Shown: positions 1 through 35,830, counted from the first letter of the stretch. The stretch: 64,000 nt of DNA from Candidatus Abyssobacteria bacterium SURF_5 (GCA_003598085.1 QZKU01000045.1:15852-79851), one strand, 5' to 3'. Made by a program: numbers and translations. The notes: a model not told the origin generated them from the letters alone.

Positions 1-840
1 TATTCCAATTCGACCTGGACGCTTCCCAGCCACGTATCCATGTTTTCCGGCCTCTTGCCGTCTGAACATAAAGTCGCGAACCAGGGCGATAAGGTTGCGC
101 CCACCTTTGATCTCTTGCCGGAAACGCTGCAGAAAAAAGGATACACAACAGCCGGTTTCGTTGAAAACCTGTGGTTGTCTGCGCCCTTCGGCTTTAGCAG
201 GGGGTTTCACGAGTACATTTACAATGCTGCTCCGCAATCGGCATTCGCAAATGCCGAAAAGTTTCTCGAATCAGCCAAAACGCCCTATTTCATCTTTATA
301 AATACCATGACGGTTCATGAGTGGTGGGCTACTCTGCGAAGTTATCCGATAACCGATGAAGGCTTTGTCGCCGCCGTCGATAATCCGGCAAGCGGGTCTC
401 TTTACGCCGAAGCCGTCAGCGCATCCGACAAACAGGTTTTCCAGTTCATTGCCGCCGTCCTCAAGCATGACCCTGAAACGCGGATCATTCTCACGTCCGA
501 CCACGGCGAAGGTCTCGGAGAATCCGAGTACGGCTATGTCTCAAAGGGTCATCATACATATCCCGTTCCATCGCAAACTCGCGTTCCGTTGATTATTTCC
601 GGCAAACCCCGGACCGAAGGAGCGCTTTTCGACTTGCGAAGCCTCAAGTCCCTCATAATTGGCGAGCCATTTCCGGCCGGCGCCATCGTGTCCGAAATCA
701 ATTACAAAGACATCCATTACACAGCCACAATCTCAGAACGTCAGTATGCAATCAAGGAGTCCGATGCCAAGCCGTCAAACGCTGACGACATTCCCCCCGA
801 CATCGCCGCCCAATTAAAAACCCTGGGATATCTGAATTAA
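1..840 (+). CDS. Sulfatase-family protein (alkaline-phosphatase superfamily), 5'-truncated by the window edge
   Basis: Open frame runs from nt 1 in the frame of the 40..840 ORF. Carries a PSEHKVANQGDK region and an SDHGEGLGE motif typical of the sulfatase C-terminal core. Stop codon at 838..840. Confidence 0.6.
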   Translation, partial: YSNSTWTLPSHVSMFSGLLPSEHKVANQGDKVAPTFDLLPETLQKKGYTTAGFVENLWLSAPFGFSRGFHEYIYNAAPQSAFANAEKFLESAKTPYFIFINTMTVHEWWATLRSYPITDEGFVAAVDNPASGSLYAEAVSASDKQVFQFIAAVLKHDPETRIILTSDHGEGLGESEYGYVSKGHHTYPVPSQTRVPLIISGKPRTEGALFDLRSLKSLIIGEPFPAGAIVSEINYKDIHYTATISERQYAIKESDAKPSNADDIPPDIAAQLKTLGYLN

Positions 841-1199
841 GAATCTTCCGCGACTCTTGTCTGAAATAATTCTTTTGGTCTTGGACAGTGCTCAATCAAA
901 GTGAAAACTGTTGGCGGATACTGAAAATTTCATTAAACCGCAAAGGCGCAGAGGCCGCAAAGACAGGATAAAAGGAGGATTCAAAAGGTCTTGTTGTGCA
1001 TTGTCTTTCTCTGCGCTCTTCGCGTCTCAGCGGTGAAAAAAAGCTTTATAAAAACAGCCTAAAACCAGTCACTCCAATCGGCTCTGCAAGATATGGGTTT
1101 TCGAGAATCAAAAAACCGTATCAGATATTGGACAGCAGTGTTTTTTCAATCCAAAGCATGTCCCGGACCTTGCCCCGGGATCGAAAATCCAAAATCCAA

Positions 1200-1253
1200 A
1201 ATAAAAAAGAGCGCCCGACTGGACTCGAACCAGCGACACGCGGTTTAGGAAAC
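1200..1253. repeat. 54-bp direct repeat (attR-like). It duplicates the 3' part of tRNA-Arg(CCU), from the anticodon loop to the 3' end plus an 8-nt trailer.
   Basis: Perfect 54/54 identity with 8972..9025 (aataaaaaagagcgcccgactggactcgaaccagcgacacgcggtttaggaaac). Flanking bases differ on both sides (1199 a vs 8971 t; 1254 g vs 9026 c). Confidence 0.85.
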
Positions 1254-1510
1254 GAGACCGTTAAAAACGGCTGATGTGCAAACGGCTCGGAGGCTTATAA
1301 ATAAAGGCTTCTGGGCCGTTTCTTTTTGGTTTGCGTCGTGTCGTGTCGGCTCGTGTCGGCGTTTTAAGCACACTCACAAGCACACTGGCATGCACACTAC
1401 TGGACACATTTTGCAGTTGATTATGGGGTTGATCCATGATAGATTATTTCTTGTAGTGCTCGGTTCATCAAGCTCCATACATCTGACCAGAAGGGAGAAA
1501 TCTACTCGGC

Positions 1511-2650
1511 ATGCCATTTGAAATTAAATTTGAACAACTGCCGGGTGGATATGTAGTAACTTCCGCTCGTCCTGGCGAGGAATGGGAGATGGAGCTTCGG
1601 GGTTTCGTCTCCTCTGAAGATGGCGATGAGCTTGTGGCCAAACTCGAAAAATTACCTCAGCAGATTCTCTCTATGCTTCCATTCAAGCCGCCTATTCTGC
1701 CATCCATGGTAGATTCACTTTTGGCCGTGATTCGGAAGGACAGGACGGCAACCATATACCTAAATGAGGCGCAATCGGTTATCTTAATTCGCATAAAAGG
1801 CTCTTGTGAGAAAGGGGAATTAATAACAAAAAATCGTGTGTTGGATATGGGGAAAATGAGATTCCCTGGGGTAGATATTCCTCCAGACGCGGCCATCATA
1901 TACGTCTTTTCTGTAGGTTGGCGCAAAGGGTTCTTCTACGACCTTGAGCCTCTATATGGAGAAAAAGCCGAACCGCGCGGTTATGACCTTGAGGATGTTC
2001 TTGGAAGTCTCTACTCATATCTATCCTTCCAGGAACGGTTCAAGATTGACAATAAGACCTGGCAGACCTTCTTTGCGCAGAAATGGTTTCCATTCGTTTA
2101 CCTCGATGATCAGCTAATCCGCGACATGATATCGCACGCAAGGGCGGGGTGGCAGATCGATGAACTGCTTCCAAAGGTATCGGCCAACGTGGGACGGCTG
2201 CTTGAAACGTCCCCCTTGATTGAGAGGAAGGACTTGGTTTTTGCTGAACATATCGAGATGCTCAAGACATCTGTTGAAAGATATCTCGCAGGCGACCACA
2301 TTAGCTGCGCTTCAATTCTATACCCGCGCATCGAGGGATTGCTTCGGTCATTCCAACGGACCTCTGGATGCACATCCTACCCAACGGCAAAGACGTTGAG
2401 CAAAACTGCCGTGGAACACCATCAAACGGCAAGGATATCAGCTTCCCTTCTTCTTCCGTCGAAATTCAACGAATATCTGGACAATGTCTACTTCGCCCAT
2501 TTTATACCCGGCTCTGCGCCCGATGTTGGGCGACATTCCGTAGCACATGGTGAGGCCCGAACGGACGACTTCTCTCTTAAAGCAACTACTGTTGCATTTC
2601 TCATCATTTATCAGCTATCGCTGTTCTTCTCGGACGAAAAGAAGAAATAG
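1511..2650 (+). CDS. Hypothetical protein (379 aa) with a C-terminal R-x4-H motif suggestive of a HEPN-type RNase fold. Possibly Abi-like.
   Basis: Long ORF with an AGGGAG ribosome-binding site ~10 nt upstream. Motif G-R-H-S-V-A-H-G at nt 2531..2548 fits the HEPN R[NHQ]xxxH signature. The rest has no recognisable family. Lies inside the A+T-rich island. Confidence 0.45.
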   Translation: MPFEIKFEQLPGGYVVTSARPGEEWEMELRGFVSSEDGDELVAKLEKLPQQILSMLPFKPPILPSMVDSLLAVIRKDRTATIYLNEAQSVILIRIKGSCEKGELITKNRVLDMGKMRFPGVDIPPDAAIIYVFSVGWRKGFFYDLEPLYGEKAEPRGYDLEDVLGSLYSYLSFQERFKIDNKTWQTFFAQKWFPFVYLDDQLIRDMISHARAGWQIDELLPKVSANVGRLLETSPLIERKDLVFAEHIEMLKTSVERYLAGDHISCASILYPRIEGLLRSFQRTSGCTSYPTAKTLSKTAVEHHQTARISASLLLPSKFNEYLDNVYFAHFIPGSAPDVGRHSVAHGEARTDDFSLKATTVAFLIIYQLSLFFSDEKKK

Positions 2651-2872
2651 TGGATTTTCTTTCGGCTCACCTTAATGCGAAGGCCACGGCCCCTCCGAAC
2701 GATGACAAAATCTGCACGAACCATGAAGAAATATGCAGGAAAAATCACGAAATATCAAGGGGTTGTCGGGGAGTAGGGTTATTGGTCGGTTTTCTGGAAT
2801 TCGACCAATCTGGTATAATTACGTGCGTTCCGCCTCAGAGCTTTTCAATTTGCCAAAGGTAAAGGAGTCATC

Positions 2873-3985
2873 ATGCTTGGCAAAAACGATCTTCATCTGG
2901 AGTTGCTTGAGGTTGCCGAGCGCTTGGAACAACTAGCTCAGGAAGGTCAACTGCCGGATGTAAAGACACCGTTAGAAGAATTGGAAGGAGCAGCAAATAC
3001 AGTTGGTAAAGCTTGGAGCGGTTCATGGATCGGATATCAATCGCGTATTTACTACTCCTACTTCAAGCCTCCGCCACCGGGGGACCATTTTAATTCATGG
3101 GCGGGAAGGGCTGATACCGACAATTGGAAAGAAGTCGATAATGAAAAGGTACAAGAGCGAATTTACGAAAAGGCTGGTAATCCAGACCTTCAGAAGGCCG
3201 AAAGAGTTGCAGAAAGGGCTAGAAAGGCCTTTGAAAGCGATAAGCTTGAAGTCATGTCACTTTTGAATCATGCATTACTGGAGCAAGAGGATTCTTTTCT
3301 TGCTCAACTGAAAGATCGAGTTGAAAAAACAAATATCACTTCAAGAATGGAATTCATTCACGCGCTTCAACCCTCTAAATTTTCTACGCTTGATGTAGTT
3401 GCAGGACAACAGGGCATTCAAATTCCTCCTCATTTATCTATACTGTCTTTAGTTTACTACTTGCGCAATACGATAGAATCATGTGCGAAATTAGGACAAT
3501 TTGCGCGGAAGGCCGGGTCGCATCTGGCACGGCTACAGCGGCAAACCCGTCGCTCGCTCGAAATAGGCACCAACGTTTTCATTGGTCATGGTCGTTCTCC
3601 GGTCTGGAGGGAGTTAAAGGATTTCGTCCAGGACCGCCTCCACCTCCCTTGGGATGAGTTCAACCGCATTCCAGTTGCTGGAGTAACCAATGTGGCTCGC
3701 CTGTCCGAATTGCTTCAATCGGCGGCAATGGCATTCCTGGTTATGACGGGTGAGGATGAGCAAGCTGATGGTACTATGAACGCACGGATGAATGTAATTC
3801 ATGAAGCAGGATTGTTTCAGGGCCGTCTGGGTTTTAACCGGGCAATCATCTTACTGGAGGAGGGTTGTGAAGGATTCAGCAACATAGAAGGGCTGGGACA
3901 GATACCCTTCCCGAAGGGGAATATCACTGCGGCCTTTGAAAAAGTGCGAGAAGTCCTCGAAAGGGAAGGATTAATTGTGTCATGA
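2873..3985 (+). CDS. Protein with an unknown helical N-terminal domain (~240 aa) and a C-terminal CAP12/PycTIR-type TIR-like (PF10137-like) domain
   Basis: C-terminal segment VFIGHGRSPVWRELKDFV...AFLVMTGEDEQ...ARMNVIHEAGLFQGRLGFNRAIILLEEGCEGFSNIEGLGQI matches, block for block, the VFIVHGHD...FAIVLLTPDD...ARQNVIFELGFFLGKLGRERV..L.EKGVEIPSD..G pattern of the TIR-like domain of CBASS CAP12 and Pycsar PycTIR effectors. AAAGGAG ribosome-binding site precedes the ATG. An extended -10 (TGGTATAAT, 2811..2819) lies upstream. Confidence 0.7.
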   Translation: MLGKNDLHLELLEVAERLEQLAQEGQLPDVKTPLEELEGAANTVGKAWSGSWIGYQSRIYYSYFKPPPPGDHFNSWAGRADTDNWKEVDNEKVQERIYEKAGNPDLQKAERVAERARKAFESDKLEVMSLLNHALLEQEDSFLAQLKDRVEKTNITSRMEFIHALQPSKFSTLDVVAGQQGIQIPPHLSILSLVYYLRNTIESCAKLGQFARKAGSHLARLQRQTRRSLEIGTNVFIGHGRSPVWRELKDFVQDRLHLPWDEFNRIPVAGVTNVARLSELLQSAAMAFLVMTGEDEQADGTMNARMNVIHEAGLFQGRLGFNRAIILLEEGCEGFSNIEGLGQIPFPKGNITAAFEKVREVLEREGLIVS

Positions 3986-4024
3986 GATTTCTGCATTTTA
4001 GATAAAAAAGGGCTGAACAAAGAG

Positions 4025-4720
4025 ATGGCGGGTTCCAAGAAATATGAACCACCGAAGGCCACAGCAGGGGATTATACGCATACGGTTGTTCGTGCAGGTC
4101 TCGGTGCGATTCCTTTAGTGGGCACTGCCGCGACAGAGCTTTTCCGTCTTGTCGTCGAACCTCCATTGGATCGGCGTCGCCAGGTATGGATGGAAGAGGT
4201 CGGGGAGAGTCTCCGAAAGCTGGATGCTGAAAAGGGAGTGCGCCTGGAGGACCTCCGGGAGAATGATACTTTTATCGATATTGTCCTTCAGGCGAGCCAG
4301 GCTGCCATGAGGACCAGCCATGAAGAGAAGCGGAAAGCTTTACGAAATGCAATCATGAATTCGGCCCTCCCTCATTCGCCCGACGAGGCGCGACAACACT
4401 TTTTCATCCGACTAATTGACGAGCTTTCGGCACGGCATCTGCAGGTTTTAAAAATCTTCCAGGACCCCTTGGAATGGGCAAAAGCAAATAAGCACGATAC
4501 TCCGATAATAGTGGGTGACAACGAAGATGCGGATTTGGCGCGAAGACTTGCCTTTCCTGATATGGGTGACGAACGCCCCTATGCTGAGCAAATATGGCGG
4601 GACTTGCATGTTCGGGGCTTGGTTAAAAGAGATTCTTTTCAAAGGGTTTTCGGTCCCGCAAAGAACGAAATAACTGTTATCGCCCATGAATTTCTCCGGT
4701 ACATCAAGGAGCCGGTCTAA
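4025..4720 (+). CDS. Hypothetical protein (231 aa), probably co-transcribed with the upstream TIR-like gene
   Basis: ORF starts 40 nt after the stop of the previous gene and has an AAAGAG ribosome-binding site. No recognisable motif. Charged and helical composition. Confidence 0.45.
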   Translation: MAGSKKYEPPKATAGDYTHTVVRAGLGAIPLVGTAATELFRLVVEPPLDRRRQVWMEEVGESLRKLDAEKGVRLEDLRENDTFIDIVLQASQAAMRTSHEEKRKALRNAIMNSALPHSPDEARQHFFIRLIDELSARHLQVLKIFQDPLEWAKANKHDTPIIVGDNEDADLARRLAFPDMGDERPYAEQIWRDLHVRGLVKRDSFQRVFGPAKNEITVIAHEFLRYIKEPV

Positions 4721-4916
4721 TACACAGAAACAGCATTTCAAGCCTCTGTCCTTTGCAGCCTCCCTCTTGCCGTACTCCCGGTATACTCGAAAGCCAGTCA
4801 GGACGCCTCCGACCAGTGACGAAATCTCCTCGAATCGTGAAGAAAAAGGCAGGAAAATTTACGGAATATGAAGGGCTTCTCGTGAAATGGTGGTTATTGG
4901 TCGATTTTCCAGGAGG

Positions 4917-7445
4917 TCAGCCTCTCTTTCGTCTCGCTGGAATTTCAATAGTGACCGGTAGCCCAATCTGAACCGCGACGGGTGTGTAAATATCAATATC
5001 CTCTTGCGGGGTATAGATAGACACAATCAAGGTGTAACGAGTCCGCCTGCTCCACCTGTTCAAATGATGCCGTTCCCGCCACCATCCTACAGACGGATAA
5101 ACAGCGATTAGATTTGATCCGGCTAAATCCGCGGCTCTTCCGTGCCAGATATCGGAGTGAATTGAACCTACATTTCTTGCCGCTCCAATGAGCCAATTTC
5201 CCCCAATACCTTCCGTGCCAGGATGCTCGCCATCGTCGCGAGCTTGTTCATTCACTCGCTGAACAAATTCGCTTTCTGATTCCCCAGGTCCATTCACCTC
5301 AAAGCGAAGTCCATGTGAGGCATATCTATATCGATCTTCCCACCCCACCTCACCTGGACTGGGCTCAATGAAATATGAGAGAGTTATCCGCATCGTAACC
5401 TGCATTGCCCCAAGTTCCGTGAGAGTATCCTTGGGCCAAGGAAGGTTGTAGAGATGCATCTCTCGGGATATGTAGCGGCTTGCTAATTTCCTCGTACCAT
5501 CACGCCCTATGGATTCCTGAATCTTCTTCTCAAAGGGTGTCAATTCTGCCTGTGAAATCAAAGTCAAAGAATTAGATAAACAATACAAAGCATCATTTAG
5601 CTTGGGTACACCATACCCACAAATTCGCAGGAGTCTTGCGTAATCACTCTTTGATCCAGCTCCGAGGAACTGCCGCTTAAGAGTGCCTGTCCAACCTGCC
5701 GAATGAACAATCAGAGCGCGAATGGTTTCTGGCCAAGCATCCGGATATTGAGCCTGAATTTGTGCAGCCATCCATGCAGCTTGTGCGCAAGCAGCGCTCG
5801 TAGCGCAAAAAGTAGCGAATTGGGCTTCTTGTGGCTTGTAATACGTTGAAAATAGTTGCAGATCATCCGGACCCATTGCGGAACCATCCGGGCTGCGCGC
5901 AACGTTCCCTCCTTCAAAAACAACCTCAGGTTTTATTGGCCATTTTCGACTAGGCCATGCGGTCGAAGTAGTACTATAAGGAGATAGTCCTCCAGATGGT
6001 GCAATTGGCTTGTAGCCTTTATATGTAGGATCACTGATCCATATCTTTTCAGTAAACGCTCCAATAGTCAAGGCGTTCCATGCCTGCCCTGGATCATGGA
6101 CCTCATTTGACAGATTCGCGTCGGAATAGTTTCGCCAATCATCGGAAGTGCTAACGTTTCCGGCGCTGATTAAGATAAGACGTCGAGTATCATCTTCGTA
6201 TCCAGAGGCTATCTCGTCCAATTTGGCTGACCAAGAAGATGGCTTGCCCTGGTCACGGGTTTGCTCGGAGGTGACAGCAATACACCCGATGCGCTTTCGA
6301 GTTGGCGCTTGAATCTCTGCAAGACTTATCCCCTGGGCCGTAAAATATCCCCATAACTCCTTGGCATTCCTGTCAGGCGGTGGTGGCAGTATTTTTGCCG
6401 ACTCTATGCAATGGGTGATGTTCACGGGAACATCGTGATCAAGAAGAAGCGACAAATCACCATACGCAGCAGTTCCCGCCATAAGAGTTCCATGACCATC
6501 ATCATCATTTGTGCCCCAATGTCCACGAACAGCGTGAAGGTCGTCGGGGTTGAGAACCGGCTGAATCAGCAAGTGCCCATTATTCACACCTGTATCAAGA
6601 ATACAGACAGCCACATCTGAGTCTCTGTCAACAATTGTACGCGCCAACAGTCTTTGCACCAACACCAACTGATCGCGGTTATCCATCTGGACGTAAAAAG
6701 AAGCTATCTTCTTGGCCCCCCTAAATTCCGCAATGTCGTCCGAGCATTCAACTAATTGTTTCAGTTGGCTGCGATTCGCCCGAATAAGCATAACTGTTCT
6801 CTCTGGAAACTTAAGAATACCTTCTTTCAATTCGCACTTCACACTTCTCAACAACGGCTCAAAATGAGAGACAACTTGATCTTGGTCGCTGCTCAGCCAG
6901 ACCTCGACCCAATCGGGGGAATTACCCGGTATAAGAGATCGCTCCTCTGGACGCCAGAAAGATTCCAAGACGGCAAGGCGAATGTCGTCAATGCTATTCA
7001 CCAGATTATAATTTTTTGGTCTCTTGCTGCGCTCGTTAATCTCAGTCGCATATGCTCTAATTTTACTTAGGAAGTAGCGGCGCTTGTTATTTGGAACGTA
7101 GACCGTTGCCAGAGTCCGCTCCAGACCTTGCTCGTCTTGCTTTCGGACATTCTGGAGACGAATTCCAGACCGTAACACATCAAGGCTCTGGACAATCAAG
7201 TCGAAACCTGGTGTACTTTGAAATTCAATGTATGTACCTTGGCGTTCCACGTAAACGGCTGTTCGACGTTGACGTTGGTCAGCTTCAGCCCAAGTCTCAT
7301 TGAGGCGCTCCTGCAGATGAGCGCTATGCTGTTCTCGGTTTCGTGGTGGAATCTTTGGAGAGCGGCCCCCTTTATTTGGGCTAGTAAATCCTTGTGTGTG
7401 GGTTGGCCCTGCCAAGAATATGTGCCTGTATCGCTCACCAGCCAT
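4917..7445 (-). CDS. Subtilisin-like serine protease (peptidase S8 domain) with large N- and C-terminal extensions; IetS-like
   Basis: Catalytic motifs ILDTGV (Asp), GHGTLMAGTAAYGD (His) and FCATSAACAQAAW (Ser, GTSxA-like). 842 aa. Start codon lies 6 nt after the stop of the upstream AAA ATPase gene. This arrangement matches the IetA/IetS two-gene module known from Agrobacterium Ti plasmids and reported as an anti-phage system. Confidence 0.75.
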   Translation of the reverse strand: MAGERYRHIFLAGPTHTQGFTSPNKGGRSPKIPPRNREQHSAHLQERLNETWAEADQRQRRTAVYVERQGTYIEFQSTPGFDLIVQSLDVLRSGIRLQNVRKQDEQGLERTLATVYVPNNKRRYFLSKIRAYATEINERSKRPKNYNLVNSIDDIRLAVLESFWRPEERSLIPGNSPDWVEVWLSSDQDQVVSHFEPLLRSVKCELKEGILKFPERTVMLIRANRSQLKQLVECSDDIAEFRGAKKIASFYVQMDNRDQLVLVQRLLARTIVDRDSDVAVCILDTGVNNGHLLIQPVLNPDDLHAVRGHWGTNDDDGHGTLMAGTAAYGDLSLLLDHDVPVNITHCIESAKILPPPPDRNAKELWGYFTAQGISLAEIQAPTRKRIGCIAVTSEQTRDQGKPSSWSAKLDEIASGYEDDTRRLILISAGNVSTSDDWRNYSDANLSNEVHDPGQAWNALTIGAFTEKIWISDPTYKGYKPIAPSGGLSPYSTTSTAWPSRKWPIKPEVVFEGGNVARSPDGSAMGPDDLQLFSTYYKPQEAQFATFCATSAACAQAAWMAAQIQAQYPDAWPETIRALIVHSAGWTGTLKRQFLGAGSKSDYARLLRICGYGVPKLNDALYCLSNSLTLISQAELTPFEKKIQESIGRDGTRKLASRYISREMHLYNLPWPKDTLTELGAMQVTMRITLSYFIEPSPGEVGWEDRYRYASHGLRFEVNGPGESESEFVQRVNEQARDDGEHPGTEGIGGNWLIGAARNVGSIHSDIWHGRAADLAGSNLIAVYPSVGWWRERHHLNRWSRRTRYTLIVSIYTPQEDIDIYTPVAVQIGLPVTIEIPARRKRG

Positions 7446-7451
7446 TTGGCA

Positions 7452-8420
7452 TTAACCTTTGTGTTTTCCGTGCGAGCTTTGTCGTTCCTTCAACATTTGT
7501 AGTAGCAAGGTTGCCTTCACCTTTCCCAAATCAGCAAGGATAACTTCTTTAATGGCGTCTCGGCAGGCTTGGTCAATCTCTGCATGACTCAACCCTTCAC
7601 TTTCGGCAAGCACGCTCTTCCACGCAAATCGTGAAGCCAAGAAACTTCCCAGTACGTTTTGCATCAAACGTCGCCGTTCGTTTTCTTTTGGCTGGTCATA
7701 GTAAAGAACGTCATCGAAACGTCGAAACAATGCTCGATCCAAGAGTTTTGGGCTATTCGTAGCGGTAATGATTAGGCTATCAGAAACATCCTGCTCGATG
7801 AATTGCAGAAATGAATTCAGAACACGGCGCATCTCTCCCACATCATTTTCTAAAGTCCTCTCACCGCCAATCGCATCGAATTCATCGAATAAGTACACCC
7901 CAAGGTCCCTCTGAACCAAGTCAAAAATCTGGCGGAGCTTTGCACTTGTTTCTCCCATAAATTTAGTTACCAGTCGATCCACCTGAATTGTATGGAGCGG
8001 CATGCGAAGCTCGTGTGCCAATACGCGCGCAGACATTGTCTTTCCCGTTCCTGGCGGGCCAACAAGCATAATTTTCCGGCGAGGCATTAGACCGTGCTCT
8101 TTGAGTTTCTGCCTTTGCCTGTACTCGTGGATTATTCGTTTTATTCGCTTCTGTAAGGCAAGGGGTAAAACCAAGGTCGCCTGAGAAACGTCCGGTTCCC
8201 CCGACAGGACAAGTCCCCGCAAATCTTGCGGAAACTTTAAAAGTGTGAGCCTATTTTCGCTGCGCGCTTCATCAACCATTTTGCGGATATCATGAGCCAG
8301 CGCGCCATGTCCCTGCTGAGCCTCGTATGCTGCAACCTGAAGTGCAATAGTGTAAAAACGTTCCGGGTCCTCACTGAAATGACACCTTATCAATGACTTG
8401 ATCTGTTCCGCAGTTGCCAT
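7452..8420 (-). CDS. AAA+ ATPase (classic AAA clade), IetA-like partner of the S8 protease
   Basis: Walker A LVGPPGTGKT, Walker B VYLFDEFD, sensor-1 ITATN and an SRH-like LDRALFRRFD. 322 aa. GGAGAA ribosome-binding site upstream. Confidence 0.8.
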   Translation of the reverse strand: MATAEQIKSLIRCHFSEDPERFYTIALQVAAYEAQQGHGALAHDIRKMVDEARSENRLTLLKFPQDLRGLVLSGEPDVSQATLVLPLALQKRIKRIIHEYRQRQKLKEHGLMPRRKIMLVGPPGTGKTMSARVLAHELRMPLHTIQVDRLVTKFMGETSAKLRQIFDLVQRDLGVYLFDEFDAIGGERTLENDVGEMRRVLNSFLQFIEQDVSDSLIITATNSPKLLDRALFRRFDDVLYYDQPKENERRRLMQNVLGSFLASRFAWKSVLAESEGLSHAEIDQACRDAIKEVILADLGKVKATLLLQMLKERQSSHGKHKG

Positions 8421-8478
8421 AAGATTCTCCGAATTTCTTTTCGCTAGCTCATGCGCGACTGCAAATGTCTATGTTCAA

Positions 8479-8507
8479 AGTGTACTTGATTTGCTGAAGA
8501 TTATCAA
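8479..8507 (-). promoter_or_regulatory. Candidate sigma-70 promoter for the ATPase-protease operon (TTGATA-17-TACACT read on the minus strand)
   Basis: -35 TTGATA is the reverse complement of 8502..8507. -10 TACACT is the reverse complement of 8479..8484. Spacer is 17 nt. About 60 nt upstream of the ATG at 8420. Confidence 0.25.
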
Positions 8508-8971
8508 ATTATTAGAGGTACAGGCGAATGGAATCATTTCATACGGCTCCTACACCCCACCTTCCTGATGCCTATGCATCATCCATTGTGAATTGGATCA
8601 GGTTCTGCTATCTTCTCCGCAGATGGACACGACGCCTTATAGAAGACATCCGACCACCTCGATGCAACATAAGCGGCTGTGTCAGCAGCGGCTGTGTCAG
8701 CATCAGCCTTCACATCTTCCTCTGTCGGCTCCTGTGCCCACAGGCGGACATTCTGCACCCTTGCCTCTCTCTTTGCCTCTAGGAAGTCCTCCTGATACTT
8801 CATTCGGCGGGAATGTTCCGCGATGCCGGTCTGAAGACGGCTGCACTGAAGCAAGGGGTTTATTCAGAGAGGCTTGGAAATGAAACAAGTACACTGACAA
8901 GCACACTCGTCCATTTTCCCACCAACCAAGAAAAATCTGCCGAGCTCACAAATAAAAATAGGGCAAAGAAT

Positions 8972-9025
8972 AATAAAAAAGAGCGCCCGACTGGACTCGA
9001 ACCAGCGACACGCGGTTTAGGAAAC
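8972..9025. repeat. 54-bp direct repeat (attL-like), the copy that lies within and next to the intact tRNA-Arg gene
   Basis: Identical to 1200..1253. Confidence 0.85.
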
Positions 9026-9055
9026 CGCTGCTCTATCCTTCTGAGCTACGGGCGC
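8982..9055 (-). tRNA. tRNA-Arg(CCU)
   Basis: Reverse complement folds as a cloverleaf. Acceptor stem GCGCCCG/CGGGCGC. D arm GCUC-AGAAGGAUA-GAGC. Anticodon stem-loop GCGGU-UUCCUAA-ACCGC (anticodon CCU). T arm GCUGG-UUCGAGU-CCAGU. 74 nt with no encoded CCA. Confidence 0.85.
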
Positions 9056-9443: not shown

Positions 9444-9980
9444 TCAATACTGGATCAAGGTGAAAATATCATAGCCCTGCAATTTGTCGCGGCCGTGCAG
9501 GTCGGTCAACTCGATCAGAAAATCGACTGCAACCACCTTCGCCTTGAAATTGTTCACGAGATCGATCGTGGCCGCGGCCGTTCCGCCCGTCGCGAGAAGG
9601 TCGTCCACGATAATCACGTTCTCTCCCCGCTCGATCGCGTCCTTATGAACCTCGAGATGATCCACGCCATATTCGAGCTCGTACTTAGCGCTGTAGGTTT
9701 CGGCCGGCAGCTTCCCCTTCTTTCGAACCGGCACAAACCCCGCCCCGAGCAGATACGCCAGCGGCGCTCCAAGGATGAATCCGCGCGACTCCATGCCGAC
9801 CACCTTGCCGATGTCTTTCCCTTTATGCCGGGCGGCAAGCGTATCAATCGCCTCGGCGAAGGCGGCCTTGTCTTTCAAGAGAGTGGTTATATCGCGAAAC
9901 AGGATGCCCTTCTTCGGGAAATCGGGAATGCTGCGGATCGCCTCTCTCAGTCGTGCGTTCATCGTTCCTCCCGTTCTCAT
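9444..9980 (-). CDS. apt: Adenine phosphoribosyltransferase
   Basis: PRPP-binding motif [16 protein letters not shown] and an APRT-like length. ATG overlaps the upstream sigma gene stop (ATGA). Confidence 0.9.
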
Positions 9981-10873
9981 AGCTCCTCGAAATCGATGTT
10001 GTTCGCTGCGATGTATTTCCTCAATTTCTTGATCGCCTTCGCCTCGATCTGCCGGATGCGCTCGCGGGTGAGGCTGAAGCGATCGCCCGTTTCCTTTAAT
10101 GTATGCGGGTCGCCGTCGGTCAGGCCATACCGGAACTGCAGGATGTCCGCCTCGCGCTGCGTCAATTGATCCAGCATCTGCATCAGTTTCTGGTCCCGGA
10201 AAACCTTGGCGACGATATCGACCGGATCAATCGAGTGAGTATCCTCAATCAATTCGCCCAACTCGATGCCTTCCTCCTCGCCGACTATCGTTTCGAGAGA
10301 CGCGATCTTCTGCGAGTACCTGTGCAATTCCGCCACCACTTCCGGTGTCACCTCGAGCTCGATCGCTATCTCCTCGACCGTCGGCTTGCGCCCCCATTGC
10401 TTATACAGGCGCTGCGTCGCCTGCTTATATTTGATGACCTGCTCGGTCATGTACACCGGAATCCGAATCGTCCGCCCATAATTCGCGAGAAAGCGGGAGA
10501 TCGCCTGCCGAATCCACCACGTGGCGTACGTGCTGAACTTGTATCCCTTGGAATAATCATATTTATCCACAGCTTTGATAAGACCAAGATTGCCTTCCTC
10601 GATCAGGTCCAGCAGCGGGAGCCCATAATGAAGATATTTGTTGGCAACGCTCACCACCAGCCGCAGGTTGGATGTGATAAGACGCTTCCGCGCCTCCTGA
10701 TCCCCCTTCTCCATCCGCTTGGCCAGATCGATCTCCTCCTCGTATGAGAGGAGATTCTGCCGGGAGATCTCCTTGAGGTACGCGCTCAGATTCTCGTTGT
10801 AGTGCCGAAAACCTGAACCCTTTCGCTCGGGAGCGGACTCGGGAGCGTCGTCTTCGTATTCAATTTGATCCAT
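9977..10873 (-). CDS. RNA polymerase sigma factor, sigma-70 family, group-2-like (298 aa)
   Basis: Regions 2 to 4 present: [35 protein letters not shown], and a C-terminal region-4 helix-turn-helix [18 protein letters not shown]. Shorter than the primary RpoD at 27319..29073. Confidence 0.85.
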
Positions 10874-27318: not shown

Positions 27319-29073
27319 TTACTGCTCCTGAACGGTCCAGTCAAGGAAGCTCTTCAGCTTCCGGCTGCGGGTGGGATGCCGCAGCTTGCGGATGGCCTTG
27401 GCCTCGATCTGGCGGACACGTTCACGCGTCACGTTGAAAACGCTGCCGACTTCCTCCAGCGTTCTCGGGTAGCCGTCGCCGAGTCCGAAGCGCAACCGAA
27501 GCACCTTCTCCTCGCGCTCGGTCAGCGTCTTGAGGACTTCCTCGAGTTTCTCCTGGAAAACGGTGAAGGCGGCCGTGTTGATCGGCGACTCGATTGATCT
27601 GTCCTCGATGAAATCGCCGAATGTGCTGTCGCCTTCTTCGCCGATCGGCGTCTCAAGTGATATCGCCTCCTGGGCGATCTTCAGTATCCCGCGAACCTTC
27701 TCGACGTCCATGTGCATCGCTTCGGAGATTTCCTCGGGAGTCGGTTCCCTCCCGTACTCCTGCACCAATCTCCTCGAGGTGCGAATCACCTTGTTGATCG
27801 TCTCGATCATGTGCACCGGAATGCGAATCGTGCGCGCCTGGTCCGCAATAGCGCGCGTTATCGCTTGCCGAATCCACCATGTTGCATACGTCGAAAACTT
27901 GTAACCGCGGCGGTATTCAAACTTGTCAACGGCCTTCATCAGACCGATGTTGCCTTCCTGGATCAGGTCGAGAAACGACATCCCGCGATTGGTATACTTC
28001 TTGGCAATGCTGACCACCAATCGCAGGTTGGCCTCCACCAGGTCCATCTTCGCGCGATAAATGCCGGCTTCGTTATTCTCGATCCGCGAGATGAGCCCGA
28101 AGATACCCTGCTTGCTCAAACGCGTATCGTGATAAATCGTGTTCAATCTCCGCTGCGCGTTCTGCAGTTTCCGCTCCAACTCCACAAATCGGGCCAGCGG
28201 CACCGGAATCCGTTTCGCCAACCGCTTCGAATCGATCTGGCGCGATCGCAGTTTCCTGCCAAGCGCCTCGATCCTGGAGGCATCCATCTTCAATTCGTCT
28301 TCGATCGACTTGATTTCGTTCTCGGCCGATTTTATCTTATGGCGCAGATTCTTGATCCTCGTCGCGATCCTGCTCGCTTCTTTAACCTTTATATCGATCT
28401 CGCGCAGCGTCGCAATCTGCTTCGTCCGGATGGAATTGATCTCGCTTCGGATTTTCTTCTTCGTGCTGTCGGCAATGCGAGGGCGCTGCAGAGCGCGCTC
28501 GAGCCGTCCTATCTGAGCTTCGCTCTTGTTCAGAAAATCGATTATCTTGGGGACCCGCTCTTCGAGTTGCTTCAGTTTTCGCTCATCGTCCTCGCGGCTG
28601 ATGCTCTCGATCGAAGCTTTTCCCCTGACTATCTTCTGCAGGATCGGAAGGATTTCTCTGACCGCGAACGGAGTGCGAATAACCGTCTCACGCAACGCAT
28701 TTTCCGCTTGCTCTATATTCTGAGCTATCCGGATTTCCTCTTCCTTGCTCAGCAGCGGAACGCGCCCCATCTCCCGCAGGTACATGCGCACCGGGTCATC
28801 CGCCCGGTCGACGCGCGAGGGAGCAAACTCCTTCTCTTCTTCTTCCTCCTCAAGCGCTTCCTCCCCCTCTTCAATTCTCAATGTGTCTACGACATCGATG
28901 TCATGATCACCGAGAGTGAGGAGAATATCATCGATCTCGCCTGCGGAAACAACATCGTCAGGAAGCATGTCGTTGATCTCTTCGAAAGTCAGTTGTCCCT
29001 GCTTCCTTCCTTTTTCGATCAAGTCCTGAACGACGTCATGTTCGTTCAGCTTTTTTTCCAGCTCTTTTTCCAC
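27319..29073 (-). CDS. rpoD: Primary RNA polymerase sigma factor RpoD (sigma-70)
   Basis: Full regions 1.1 to 4. Motifs [56 protein letters not shown] and [20 protein letters not shown]. 584 aa. Located downstream of dnaG. Confidence 0.9.
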
Positions 29074-34690: not shown

Positions 34691-35830
34691 TCAGGTGCCG
34701 AAGACTTCCTTGAATTTGTCAAGGAATTTCTTAGTGAGAGGCTGAGTTTCTTCGCCGCTGATTTTGGCGAATTCCTCGAGGAGTTCTCGCTGGCGATCGT
34801 TCAGCTTTGTCGGAGTCTCGATAACCGCCCTGACAAAAAGGTCGCCCCGCCCATGACTGCGAAGGCCGGGCATCCCTTTGCCCTTTACTCGAAAAATGTG
34901 GTGGGATTGCGTGCCTTTCGGAATCTTCAGTGAAATCTTGCCGTCCAGAGTGGGTACCCGAATCTCGGCTCCGAGGGCGGCCTGAGGAAAGGAAACGGGA
35001 ACTTCACAAATCAAATTATCGCCTTCACGCTTGAAAAAGTCATGTTCGCGCACATTTATCATGAGATAAAGGTCGCCATTGGGACCGCCTCTTGCGCCGG
35101 CCTCTCCTTCTCCGCGATACCGGATGCGGGAACCGTTATCGACTCCCGCCGGAACCGTTATCCGCAGCTTCCGCGTGGTCCGAATGCGGCCTTCTCCCTT
35201 GCACTTTCTACACGGATTCTCGAGGACCGCCCCCGCGCCCATACACCTGTGGCATGTGCGCGTTATGCTGAAAAATCCCTGCGTCTGCCTGACGCGGCCC
35301 GCGCCCCTGCACACCGGACAAACCGCTTGGCCGCTCCCAGGCTCGGCGCCCGTGCCCCCGCAGATGTCGCAATTGTCCAGGCGGGGAATCGATATCTCGC
35401 GCTCGAATCCTTCAAAGGCCTCTTCCAGCGTGAGGTCCAGGTTATATACAATGTCGTCTCCCTTTTGAACCCGACTGCGGCGGGTATCGGTACGAGCGCC
35501 GAAGAAGTCCTCGAAAATGTCGCCGAAGATATCGCCGAACGACCCAAAACCAAAATCGTTCATTCCTGCCCCAACGCCGGCATGTCCGAATTGGTCATAG
35601 TTCGCCCGTTTCTCCGGGTCAGTCAGAACGGCATACGCTTCCGCAATCTCCTTGAATTTCTCCTCGGACTCCTTATCTCCCTGCGTTCGGTCAGGATGAT
35701 GCTTCATCGCCAGCCTGCGATATGCTTTGCGAATATCATCCTCGGTCGCTCCCCGCGGGATGCCGAGCACCTCGTAATAATCCCGTTTTCCCATAGCTCT
35801 TGAGCTTAAGCAAGAGGACCATCTTTGCAA
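34691..35830 (-). CDS. dnaJ: Chaperone DnaJ
   Basis: J domain with HPD. G/F-rich linker. Four CxxCxGxG zinc-finger repeats. Confidence 0.9.

Follow-up and report, generated by a model that had tools for sequence, protein, structure and literature searches.

A probable decayed island with predicted defense cargo in the tRNA-Arg(CCU) gene of Candidatus Abyssobacteria bacterium SURF_5

Introduction

In Candidatus Abyssobacteria bacterium SURF_5, 7,718 bp of DNA lie between two identical copies of the 3′ part of a tRNA-Arg(CCU) gene. This segment is described here in its surroundings, a window of 64 kb (the whole stretch of DNA analyzed, GCA_003598085.1 QZKU01000045.1:15852-79851), and all coordinates count from the first letter of that window. 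The segment carries five genes. An AAA ATPase and an S8 serine peptidase resemble the IetA and IetS proteins, a third protein ends in a TIR-like domain and a fourth in a HEPN-like domain, and the fifth is a helical protein with a winged-helix-like part (Table 1). With a probability of about 0.8, the locus represents a decayed, tRNA-integrated island with defense cargo that has kept both of its attachment (att) sites. Such an island resembles the cis-mobilizable elements (CIMEs), in which integration genes have been lost while attL and attR are kept (PMC5704250, PMC6323972).

Organization of the locus

Read along the sense strand of the tRNA gene, the locus consists of the intact tRNA, the relic of an integrase gene, the cargo genes, an orphan tRNA fragment and the original flank, which is the canonical order. 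Host genes flank the island on either side.

Table 1. Features of the island and of its immediate flanks
Feature	Coordinates	Strand	Evidence or remarks
Left host flank: sulfatase-family gene, 3′ part, convergent with the tRNA gene	1-840	+	Pfam Sulfatase 1.3e-19
attR core: displaced orphan 3′ fragment of tRNA-Arg(CCU), 45 nt + 9 nt	1200-1253	-	Exact copy of 8972-9025
Terminator-like hairpin, 17 pairs, followed by a T-run, just within the left end	1280-1321	+	Consensus scan alone
YGTGTCRGC motif, two copies of CGTGTCGGC (1342, 1352)	1342-1360	+	
Left-arm repeats, AAGCACACT twice (1366, 1378) and degenerate ATGCACACT (1390), 12-bp spacing	1366-1398	+	Non-coding DNA
Gene 1, 379 aa (353 aa in the deposited annotation), uncharacterized, C-terminal HEPN-like domain	1511-2650	+	
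Intergenic repeat copy 1, about 115 bp, just downstream of gene 1	2684-2800	+	79% identical to 4798-4912
Gene 2, 370 aa, C-terminal CAP12/Pycsar-type TIR-like domain	2873-3985	+	PF10137 2.4e-18
Gene 3, 231 aa, helical, winged-helix-like part	4025-4720	+	Predicted fold
Intergenic repeat copy 2, just downstream of gene 3	4798-4912	+	79% identical to 2684-2800
IetS-like S8 serine peptidase, 842 aa	4917-7445	-	PF00082 3.3e-59; PADLOC IetS 2e-26
IetA-like AAA ATPase, 322 aa	7452-8420	-	PADLOC IetA (PDLC02196) 1.4e-72, residues 2-316; PF00004 7.8e-29
Inverted single copy of AAGTACACT	8479-8487	-	
YGTGTCRGC motif, two copies of TGTGTCAGC (8678, 8693), in 15-bp tandem	8678-8701	+	
Integrase relic, last ~40 codons of a tyrosine integrase, reading towards the tRNA gene	8819-8938	+	Alignments, family HMM
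Right-arm repeats, AAGTACACT (8887) and AAGCACACT (8899), 12-bp spacing	8887-8907	+	Within the relic, codons TSTL-TSTL
attL core: 3′ part of the intact tRNA gene + 9 nt	8972-9025	-	Exact repeat copy
tRNA-Arg(CCU), intact	8981-9055	-	ARAGORN tRNA-Arg(CCT); Rfam RF00005 8982-9055, 63 bits
Right host flank: apt, first gene of a ComEC-SppA-sigma-apt block	9444-9980	-	Pfam; 100% identity to SURF_5 Apt (P0001), encoded on an 85.8-kb contig

The direct repeat and the tRNA gene

The segment that bounds the island is 54 bp long (AATAAAAAAGAGCGCCCGACTGGACTCGAACCAGCGACACGCGGTTTAGGAAAC) and its two copies, in direct orientation, agree at 54 of 54 positions. Even with up to 3 mismatches allowed, only these two copies occur in the window, against 0 expected (100 shuffles), and the pair is the sole long exact repeat across its whole length. 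The perfect direct repeat reported by the first-pass annotation is therefore exact in both places and unique in the window. It starts at position 31 of the tRNA, two bases into the 5′ strand of the anticodon stem, and runs through the anticodon loop, the variable region, the T-arm and the 3′ strand of the acceptor stem to a T-run, so the T-run following the tRNA falls within the repeat itself. In all it contains the 3′ 45 nt of tRNA-Arg(CCU) and either 9 nt (ARAGORN end) or 10 nt (Rfam end) beyond the gene. The earlier description of the repeat as the 3′ tRNA part from the anticodon region onwards holds, with a trivial correction of the overhang, which had been given as 8 nt. That description had also raised the case of a 54-bp match lying inside a longer duplication; sequence identity breaks off sharply at both edges.

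ARAGORN and Rfam call a tRNA at the right copy only, which agrees with the proposal of an intact gene there and an orphan on the left. The left copy is regarded as an orphan fragment because no tRNA model calls it, neither ARAGORN nor Rfam at E ≤ 1. It has the orientation of the gene and lies downstream of the tRNA, as a displaced 3′ fragment should. One detail fared less well: at 1161-1199, where a GC hairpin with a T-rich tract had been read as the original downstream region of the tRNA, a terminator is not supported, the scan making no terminator call and the fold giving a z-score of -0.77.

The DNA between the copies is compositionally foreign. Its GC content is 48.3% versus 54.4% for the rest of the window, and among 189 equally long host windows the lowest value is 52.3%. 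In tetranucleotide usage the segment lies at a distance of 0.272 from the host profile, while the host itself has a mean of 0.109 and a maximum of 0.142. This outlying composition, along with the differing content that follows the orthologous tRNA in relatives, identifies the DNA between the repeats as horizontally acquired. The proposal of integration into the 3′ half of the tRNA gene with duplication of the att site is borne out by the same foreign composition and by the integrases that follow the orthologous tRNA in two relatives.

A relic of a tyrosine integrase

The first-pass annotation held that no recombinase is encoded between the repeats. For a recombinase gene this is correct: Pfam searches of six-frame, X-masked translations of all island intergenic DNA give no match at E ≤ 1, and none of the five cargo proteins has a recombinase domain or fold according to Pfam, PADLOC, NCBIfam and fold comparison. 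The six-frame profile check that had been recommended thus finds no intact recombinase. Likewise, tblastn of the integrase from the related genome SURF_17 (locus L035) against the window returns nothing at E ≤ 10. The claim does not extend to the last stretch before the tRNA gene, where about 40 codons from the 3′ end of an integrase gene survive.

This relic, whose plus-strand frame translates as DAGLKTAALKQGVYSERLGNETSTLTSTLVHFPTNQEKS, was first spotted by eye and then tested with Smith-Waterman and hidden Markov model (HMM) searches. Its full length can be aligned with the C-terminal ~40 residues of the integrases found at the same locus in SURF_17 and in a metagenomic relative, L084 (Smith-Waterman z 7.3 and 7.4; 0 of 300 shuffles reach the score). 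The distance from the end of the relic to the tRNA is 42 nt, and the corresponding distance in L084 is 38 nt. Over 8811-8930 the DNA of the window shares 50-62% identity with both L035 and L084, a value that falls to about 30% further left. Left of 8811, where the identity of the window drops, L084 and L035 are still 65-79% identical to one another.

An HMM of the integrase family was made from 120 of its members and run, unfiltered, over the 2,101 segments that six-frame translation of the window yields. The relic is the top match, at model positions 325-361 of 364, and nothing else integrase-like is found by this unfiltered search anywhere in the 64 kb, the neighborhood of a tRNA-Pro gene included. 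In 113 of the 120 family members the best local alignment of the relic falls at the extreme C-terminus, with a median score of 43 versus 28 for shuffled sequence, and the best family match is P0123 (DDDLRTAAEKQAAYLNEKATSMGTLSGTLTVFPTKKE). The relic does not contain the catalytic domain of tyrosine recombinases (R..HxxR..Y), since the part of the model to which it aligns lies past the catalytic Tyr. An integrase gene of this family very probably once stood here and was deleted upstream of ~8810. The deletion would have removed the catalytic domain entirely, together with the Tyr immediately preceding the codons that were retained.

The element had initially been left as either a decayed island or one mobilized in trans. 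Because of the relic this alternative is settled in favor of a decayed island, for which mobilization in trans could still occur.

Motifs at the island ends

Short repeats are found in both arms of the island. The 9-mer AAGYACACT, a motif defined after the data had been seen, has 5 matches in the window versus 0.37 expected, and all of them are near the island ends. Analogous 11-12-bp repeats are present in L084 and L035 at the same distance from the tRNA, within the 3′ ends of the integrase genes. On the simplest reading, the 9-mers are candidate arm-type integrase-binding sites on both arms. The left-arm copies constitute independent evidence for a signal at the DNA level, because they lie in non-coding DNA.

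A second motif, YGTGTCRGC, is also post hoc and is a weak signal: 4 of its 6 window matches are at the island ends, and 1 of 100 shuffles attains 6 matches. A perfect 15-bp tandem duplication (AGCGGCTGTGTCAGC twice, plus strand) occupies 8672-8701, in non-coding DNA between ietA and the relic.

Cargo genes

The five genes had been described as accessory or defense genes. The domains identified in the IetA/IetS pair and in the TIR-like and HEPN-like proteins uphold that description, and the anti-phage activity of the cargo is predicted from these domains.

The ietA-like gene lies 7 bp upstream of the ietS-like gene, on the same (minus) strand. As an adjacent, co-oriented pair of AAA ATPase and S8 peptidase matching PADLOC IetA and IetS, the two resemble the IetAS (Gao_Iet) system; they differ from it in being far under the NCBIfam equivalog cut-offs (IteA 3.8e-62, 211 bits versus a cut-off of 510; IteS 5e-18, 65 bits versus a cut-off of 900). 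Since both score below these cut-offs, they are considered distant members of their families. IetAS is an anti-phage system reportedly described by Gao and colleagues in Science in 2020. Exact-sequence look-ups of the window IetA and of the sigma factor beside apt return nothing on record.

Besides its Pfam match, gene 2 is recognized by the PADLOC TIR effector, PDC-S35 and PycTIR models at 1e-7 to 5e-10 and by phrog_16442 at 2.4e-35. Gene 1 matches HEPN RNase-type folds and contains an invariant Rx4H motif. Its family (P0241-P0360) is uncharacterized, with at least 407 matches across phyla; its invariant residues are R273, E275, R279, R341 and H346, and beta structure is abundant in the N-terminal domain. 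Homologs of gene 1 in two loci (L092, L093) are single genes amid housekeeping genes and are not at island ends. Gene 1 is a candidate stand-alone toxin or defense gene. For gene 3 there are 3,024 representative homologs at E ≤ 1e-3, yet no Pfam family, and in a 49-sequence alignment R51, F83 and H138 are the sole invariant residues.

Defense islands, and defense hotspots borne by mobile elements, are a general concept. The SURF_5 island is like them in grouping unrelated modules (Iet, TIR-like, HEPN-like) in one acquired segment at an integration hotspot. It differs in its small size of five genes, two of which are uncharacterized and have at most a putative defense role.

The two intergenic repeats of ~115 bp adjoin two unrelated genes and their fold is not unusual (z about +1). 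No copy is present in any locus retrieved. These repeats might mark cassette boundaries or shared regulatory ends.

The same locus in related genomes

The ComEC-SppA-sigma-apt block is conserved in the lineage, with synteny common to L035 and L081-L091, and the content after apt differs among relatives. A search of genome contigs with Apt yielded, among the matches listed, mostly Chloroflexota and one useful relative, SURF_17. In SURF_17, whose Apt is 77% identical, apt is followed by tRNA-Arg(CCT) and an intact tyrosine integrase (PF00589 with Int_N) that reads towards the tRNA, its stop codon 17 nt past the tRNA. A Prim-Pol/DnaB-like gene stands after the integrase. L084, a metagenomic locus with an Apt 86% identical, has the same tRNA and then an integrase fragment that covers only positions 60-166 of the 172 in PF00589. 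The truncated gene represents a second decayed element at the tRNA-Arg(CCT) hotspot, one that decayed independently. Within L084, at 4928-5892, the 5′-truncated 153-aa integrase adjoins AT-rich DNA and a MerR-family gene. The tRNA-Arg(CCT) gene has thus been used repeatedly by this integrase family in the lineage (L035, L084).

L086, with an Apt 81% identical, has no integrase here: 443 bp of non-coding DNA separate its tRNA from the C-terminus of a convergent sulfatase-family gene. This arrangement parallels the left flank of the window, where a sulfatase gene is likewise convergent with the tRNA. The three relatives and the window appear as successive states at one tRNA hotspot: unoccupied, with an intact integrase, with a truncated integrase, and with a relic. 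The first-pass annotation had proposed looking for an empty site, in which 1..1199 joins directly to 8972... This strict junction was not found, and what the more distant L086 offers is an analogous unoccupied arrangement.

Two other candidates were rejected. L085 was considered as an empty site, but its match to 924-1047 is a palindromic element and the contig ends 205 bp past apt. The sulfatase of L082 was rejected on comparison as an orthologue of the window sulfatase.

Copies of the island elsewhere had also been suggested as a check. Megablast finds no match to the full island in plasmids or phages, so no near-identical copy was found there. A 45-nt tRNA/att pattern has 0 matches in viral contigs and JGI metagenome contigs, even with degeneracy covering SURF_17.

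Origin and classification of the island

The anatomy of the locus suggests the following order of events. An integrative element would have entered the tRNA-Arg(CCU) gene of SURF_5 through recombination by a tyrosine integrase, within an att core beginning at the anticodon stem-loop. The 3′ half of a tRNA borne by the element (attP) would have rebuilt the gene, giving the present attL, and the original 3′ half of the host gene would have been pushed 7.7 kb away to become attR. The integrase gene, beside the tRNA and reading towards it, would later have been deleted save for its last ~40 codons. What remains would be a non-autonomous island that has both att cores, 9-mers in both arms and stand-alone defense or toxin-like modules. 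The island would be unable to move by itself, and a related integrase acting in trans or an accreting element would be needed to move it.

Among known classes, CIMEs are one of the closest matches. The island retains attL and attR, has lost the genes for integration, excision and transfer, and occupies a tRNA gene at its 3′ end. CIMEs are mobilized by accretion (PMC5704250, PMC6323972), and the SURF_5 island would similarly be expected to stay in place unless a related integrase helps it or an incoming element accretes with it. The reference CIMEs are decayed streptococcal integrative and conjugative elements (ICEs) or integrative and mobilizable elements (IMEs), whereas here the host belongs to an uncultivated subsurface lineage and the cargo consists of defense genes. 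Traces of conjugative ancestry differ as well: no relaxase, type IV secretion system or origin of transfer is found in the island, and the integrase-bearing relative, SURF_17, carries the Prim-Pol/DnaB-like replication gene and not a relaxase.

The island also shares features with those collected by Islander, which are recognized by a regenerated tRNA gene with a displaced 3′ fragment and include an anticodon-centered att class (PMC4383910; Williams 2002, NAR 30:866, as cited there for tRNA-integrated islands). As in class A of Islander, the tRNA is regenerated, the displaced fragment is direct, and the block of identity extends from the anticodon stem-loop past the 3′ end. The position of the integrase beside the tRNA is held in the window by the relic. 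Of the features that Islander looks for, an intact tRNA with a displaced direct fragment, a canonical att sublocation and acquired content are all present, while the integrase gene (PF00589) is represented by the relic only. The Islander filter would reject the SURF_5 island, because it has no integrase gene.

Several observations weigh against a decayed integrated island. The relic is short, and the E value of its profile match, 0.48, is not by itself significant against the whole window. The right-arm 9-mers fall where the relic encodes its TSTL-TSTL repeat, and since a similar peptide repeat is conserved throughout the integrase family, coding ancestry alone could explain them; the 9-mer is moreover a post hoc definition. 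A perfectly conserved orphan fragment is somewhat unexpected in an old, decaying island. Comparative data contribute further points: no strict empty site was found in a close relative, tRNA-Arg is not present after apt in L081, L082, L087, L088, L090 and L091, which are among the closest relatives, and the L086 sulfatase bears only a weak resemblance to that of the window (35% over 37 aa, E 0.002). Finally, the contig comes from a metagenome-assembled genome and is known from assembly alone.

The alternative that survives best is that the island is an active hitchhiker, an integrase-less defense island kept mobile by selection and moved in trans or in cis by a related integrase. It overlaps with the decayed-island interpretation, differing in present-day function alone, and is considered rather unlikely. 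The identity of attL and attR is in its favor, given that the orphan copy has no tRNA function, and so is the point at which the deletion halted, just short of the integrase segment with the 12-bp repeats, while matching 9-mers persist in the non-coding left arm. The repeated targeting of tRNA-Arg(CCT) by this integrase family and the known mobilization of CIMEs by accretion (PMC5704250, PMC6323972) are also consistent with it. However, no integrase of any family is detectable in the window, there is no second island or att core in the viral and metagenome contigs, plasmids and phages searched, and a recent insertion explains perfect repeats equally well. The identical att cores and the retained, repeat-bearing sliver of integrase are indeed compatible with mobility and with recent insertion followed by deletion in equal measure. 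A more specific version, which is doubtful, would make the island a minimal satellite, with att cores and arm sites under selection, whose defense cargo related integrases excise, circularize and re-integrate in trans.

A decayed island is also far better placed than an autonomous one whose recombinase has gone unrecognized in gene 1, gene 3 or the N-terminal part of gene 2. These three regions have no Pfam annotation, and the winged-helix-like part of gene 3 is possibly DNA-binding. Such a recombinase is nevertheless highly improbable: gene 1 has HEPN RNase-type folds with the invariant Rx4H and homologs that are solitary, gene 3 has no match resembling a catalytic domain, and the relic points to a conventional tyrosine integrase as the original enzyme.

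An assembly chimera, in which DNA of another population was joined at the shared tRNA sequence, would fit a contig from a metagenome-assembled genome and an island with a composition unlike the remainder. It is equally improbable, since both junctions lie in one contig with host flanks on either side, and the polarity is exactly as integration predicts, with the intact gene, the adjoining relic and the distal orphan fragment. A length of 54 bp is also below the final k-mers commonly used by assemblers, which argues against a chimera. That the repeat arose by coincidence, or by a segmental duplication that has nothing to do with integration, is effectively refuted, as zero matches are expected by chance, its edges fall at the anticodon stem and at the end of the tRNA, the relic is present, and integrases occupy the same place in relatives.

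Other features of the window

The sulfatase gene of the left flank has no relative among the metagenome contigs searched. Between it and the orphan fragment lies a palindromic element of ~125 nt (924-1047), with arms ACCGCAAAGGCGCAGAG... and ...CTCTGCGCTCTTCGCG and a predicted fold of -38.5 kcal/mol (z -2.1). A homologue is found right after apt in L085 (2498-2630), and a partial copy in SURF_17 (L035 223-249). Because of these copies in L085 and, partly, elsewhere in SURF_17, the element looks like a dispersed repeat of Abyssobacteria, of the kind of repetitive extragenic palindromes (REP) or miniature inverted-repeat transposable elements (MITE). Rfam gives no match for the palindromic element or for the intergenic repeats of the island.

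Beyond apt, a 241-nt direct repeat with 72% identity (10431-10671 and 27791-28031) joins the 298-aa sigma-70-family gene adjoining apt to a longer open reading frame at 27319-29073; the two are presumably sigma-factor paralogues. A 98-nt tRNA-Ile(GAT) called by ARAGORN at 34723-34820 misses the Rfam tRNA gathering score and is probably either spurious or an atypical gene, perhaps an interrupted one.

Implications

No new mechanism is revealed by this locus, which appears to be a decayed genomic island of a well-known type. What is added is the integrase relic, a comparative series at one tRNA hotspot and a classification of the cargo. The hotspot series comes from a poorly known subsurface lineage. 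Island finders that require an integrase miss islands such as this one. Two large uncharacterized families, one HEPN-like and the other helical with a winged helix-turn-helix-like part, join the candidates associated with defense islands. For SURF_5, the locus would provide a clean and precisely bounded case of defense genes staying in a genome after the decay of the vehicle that brought them.

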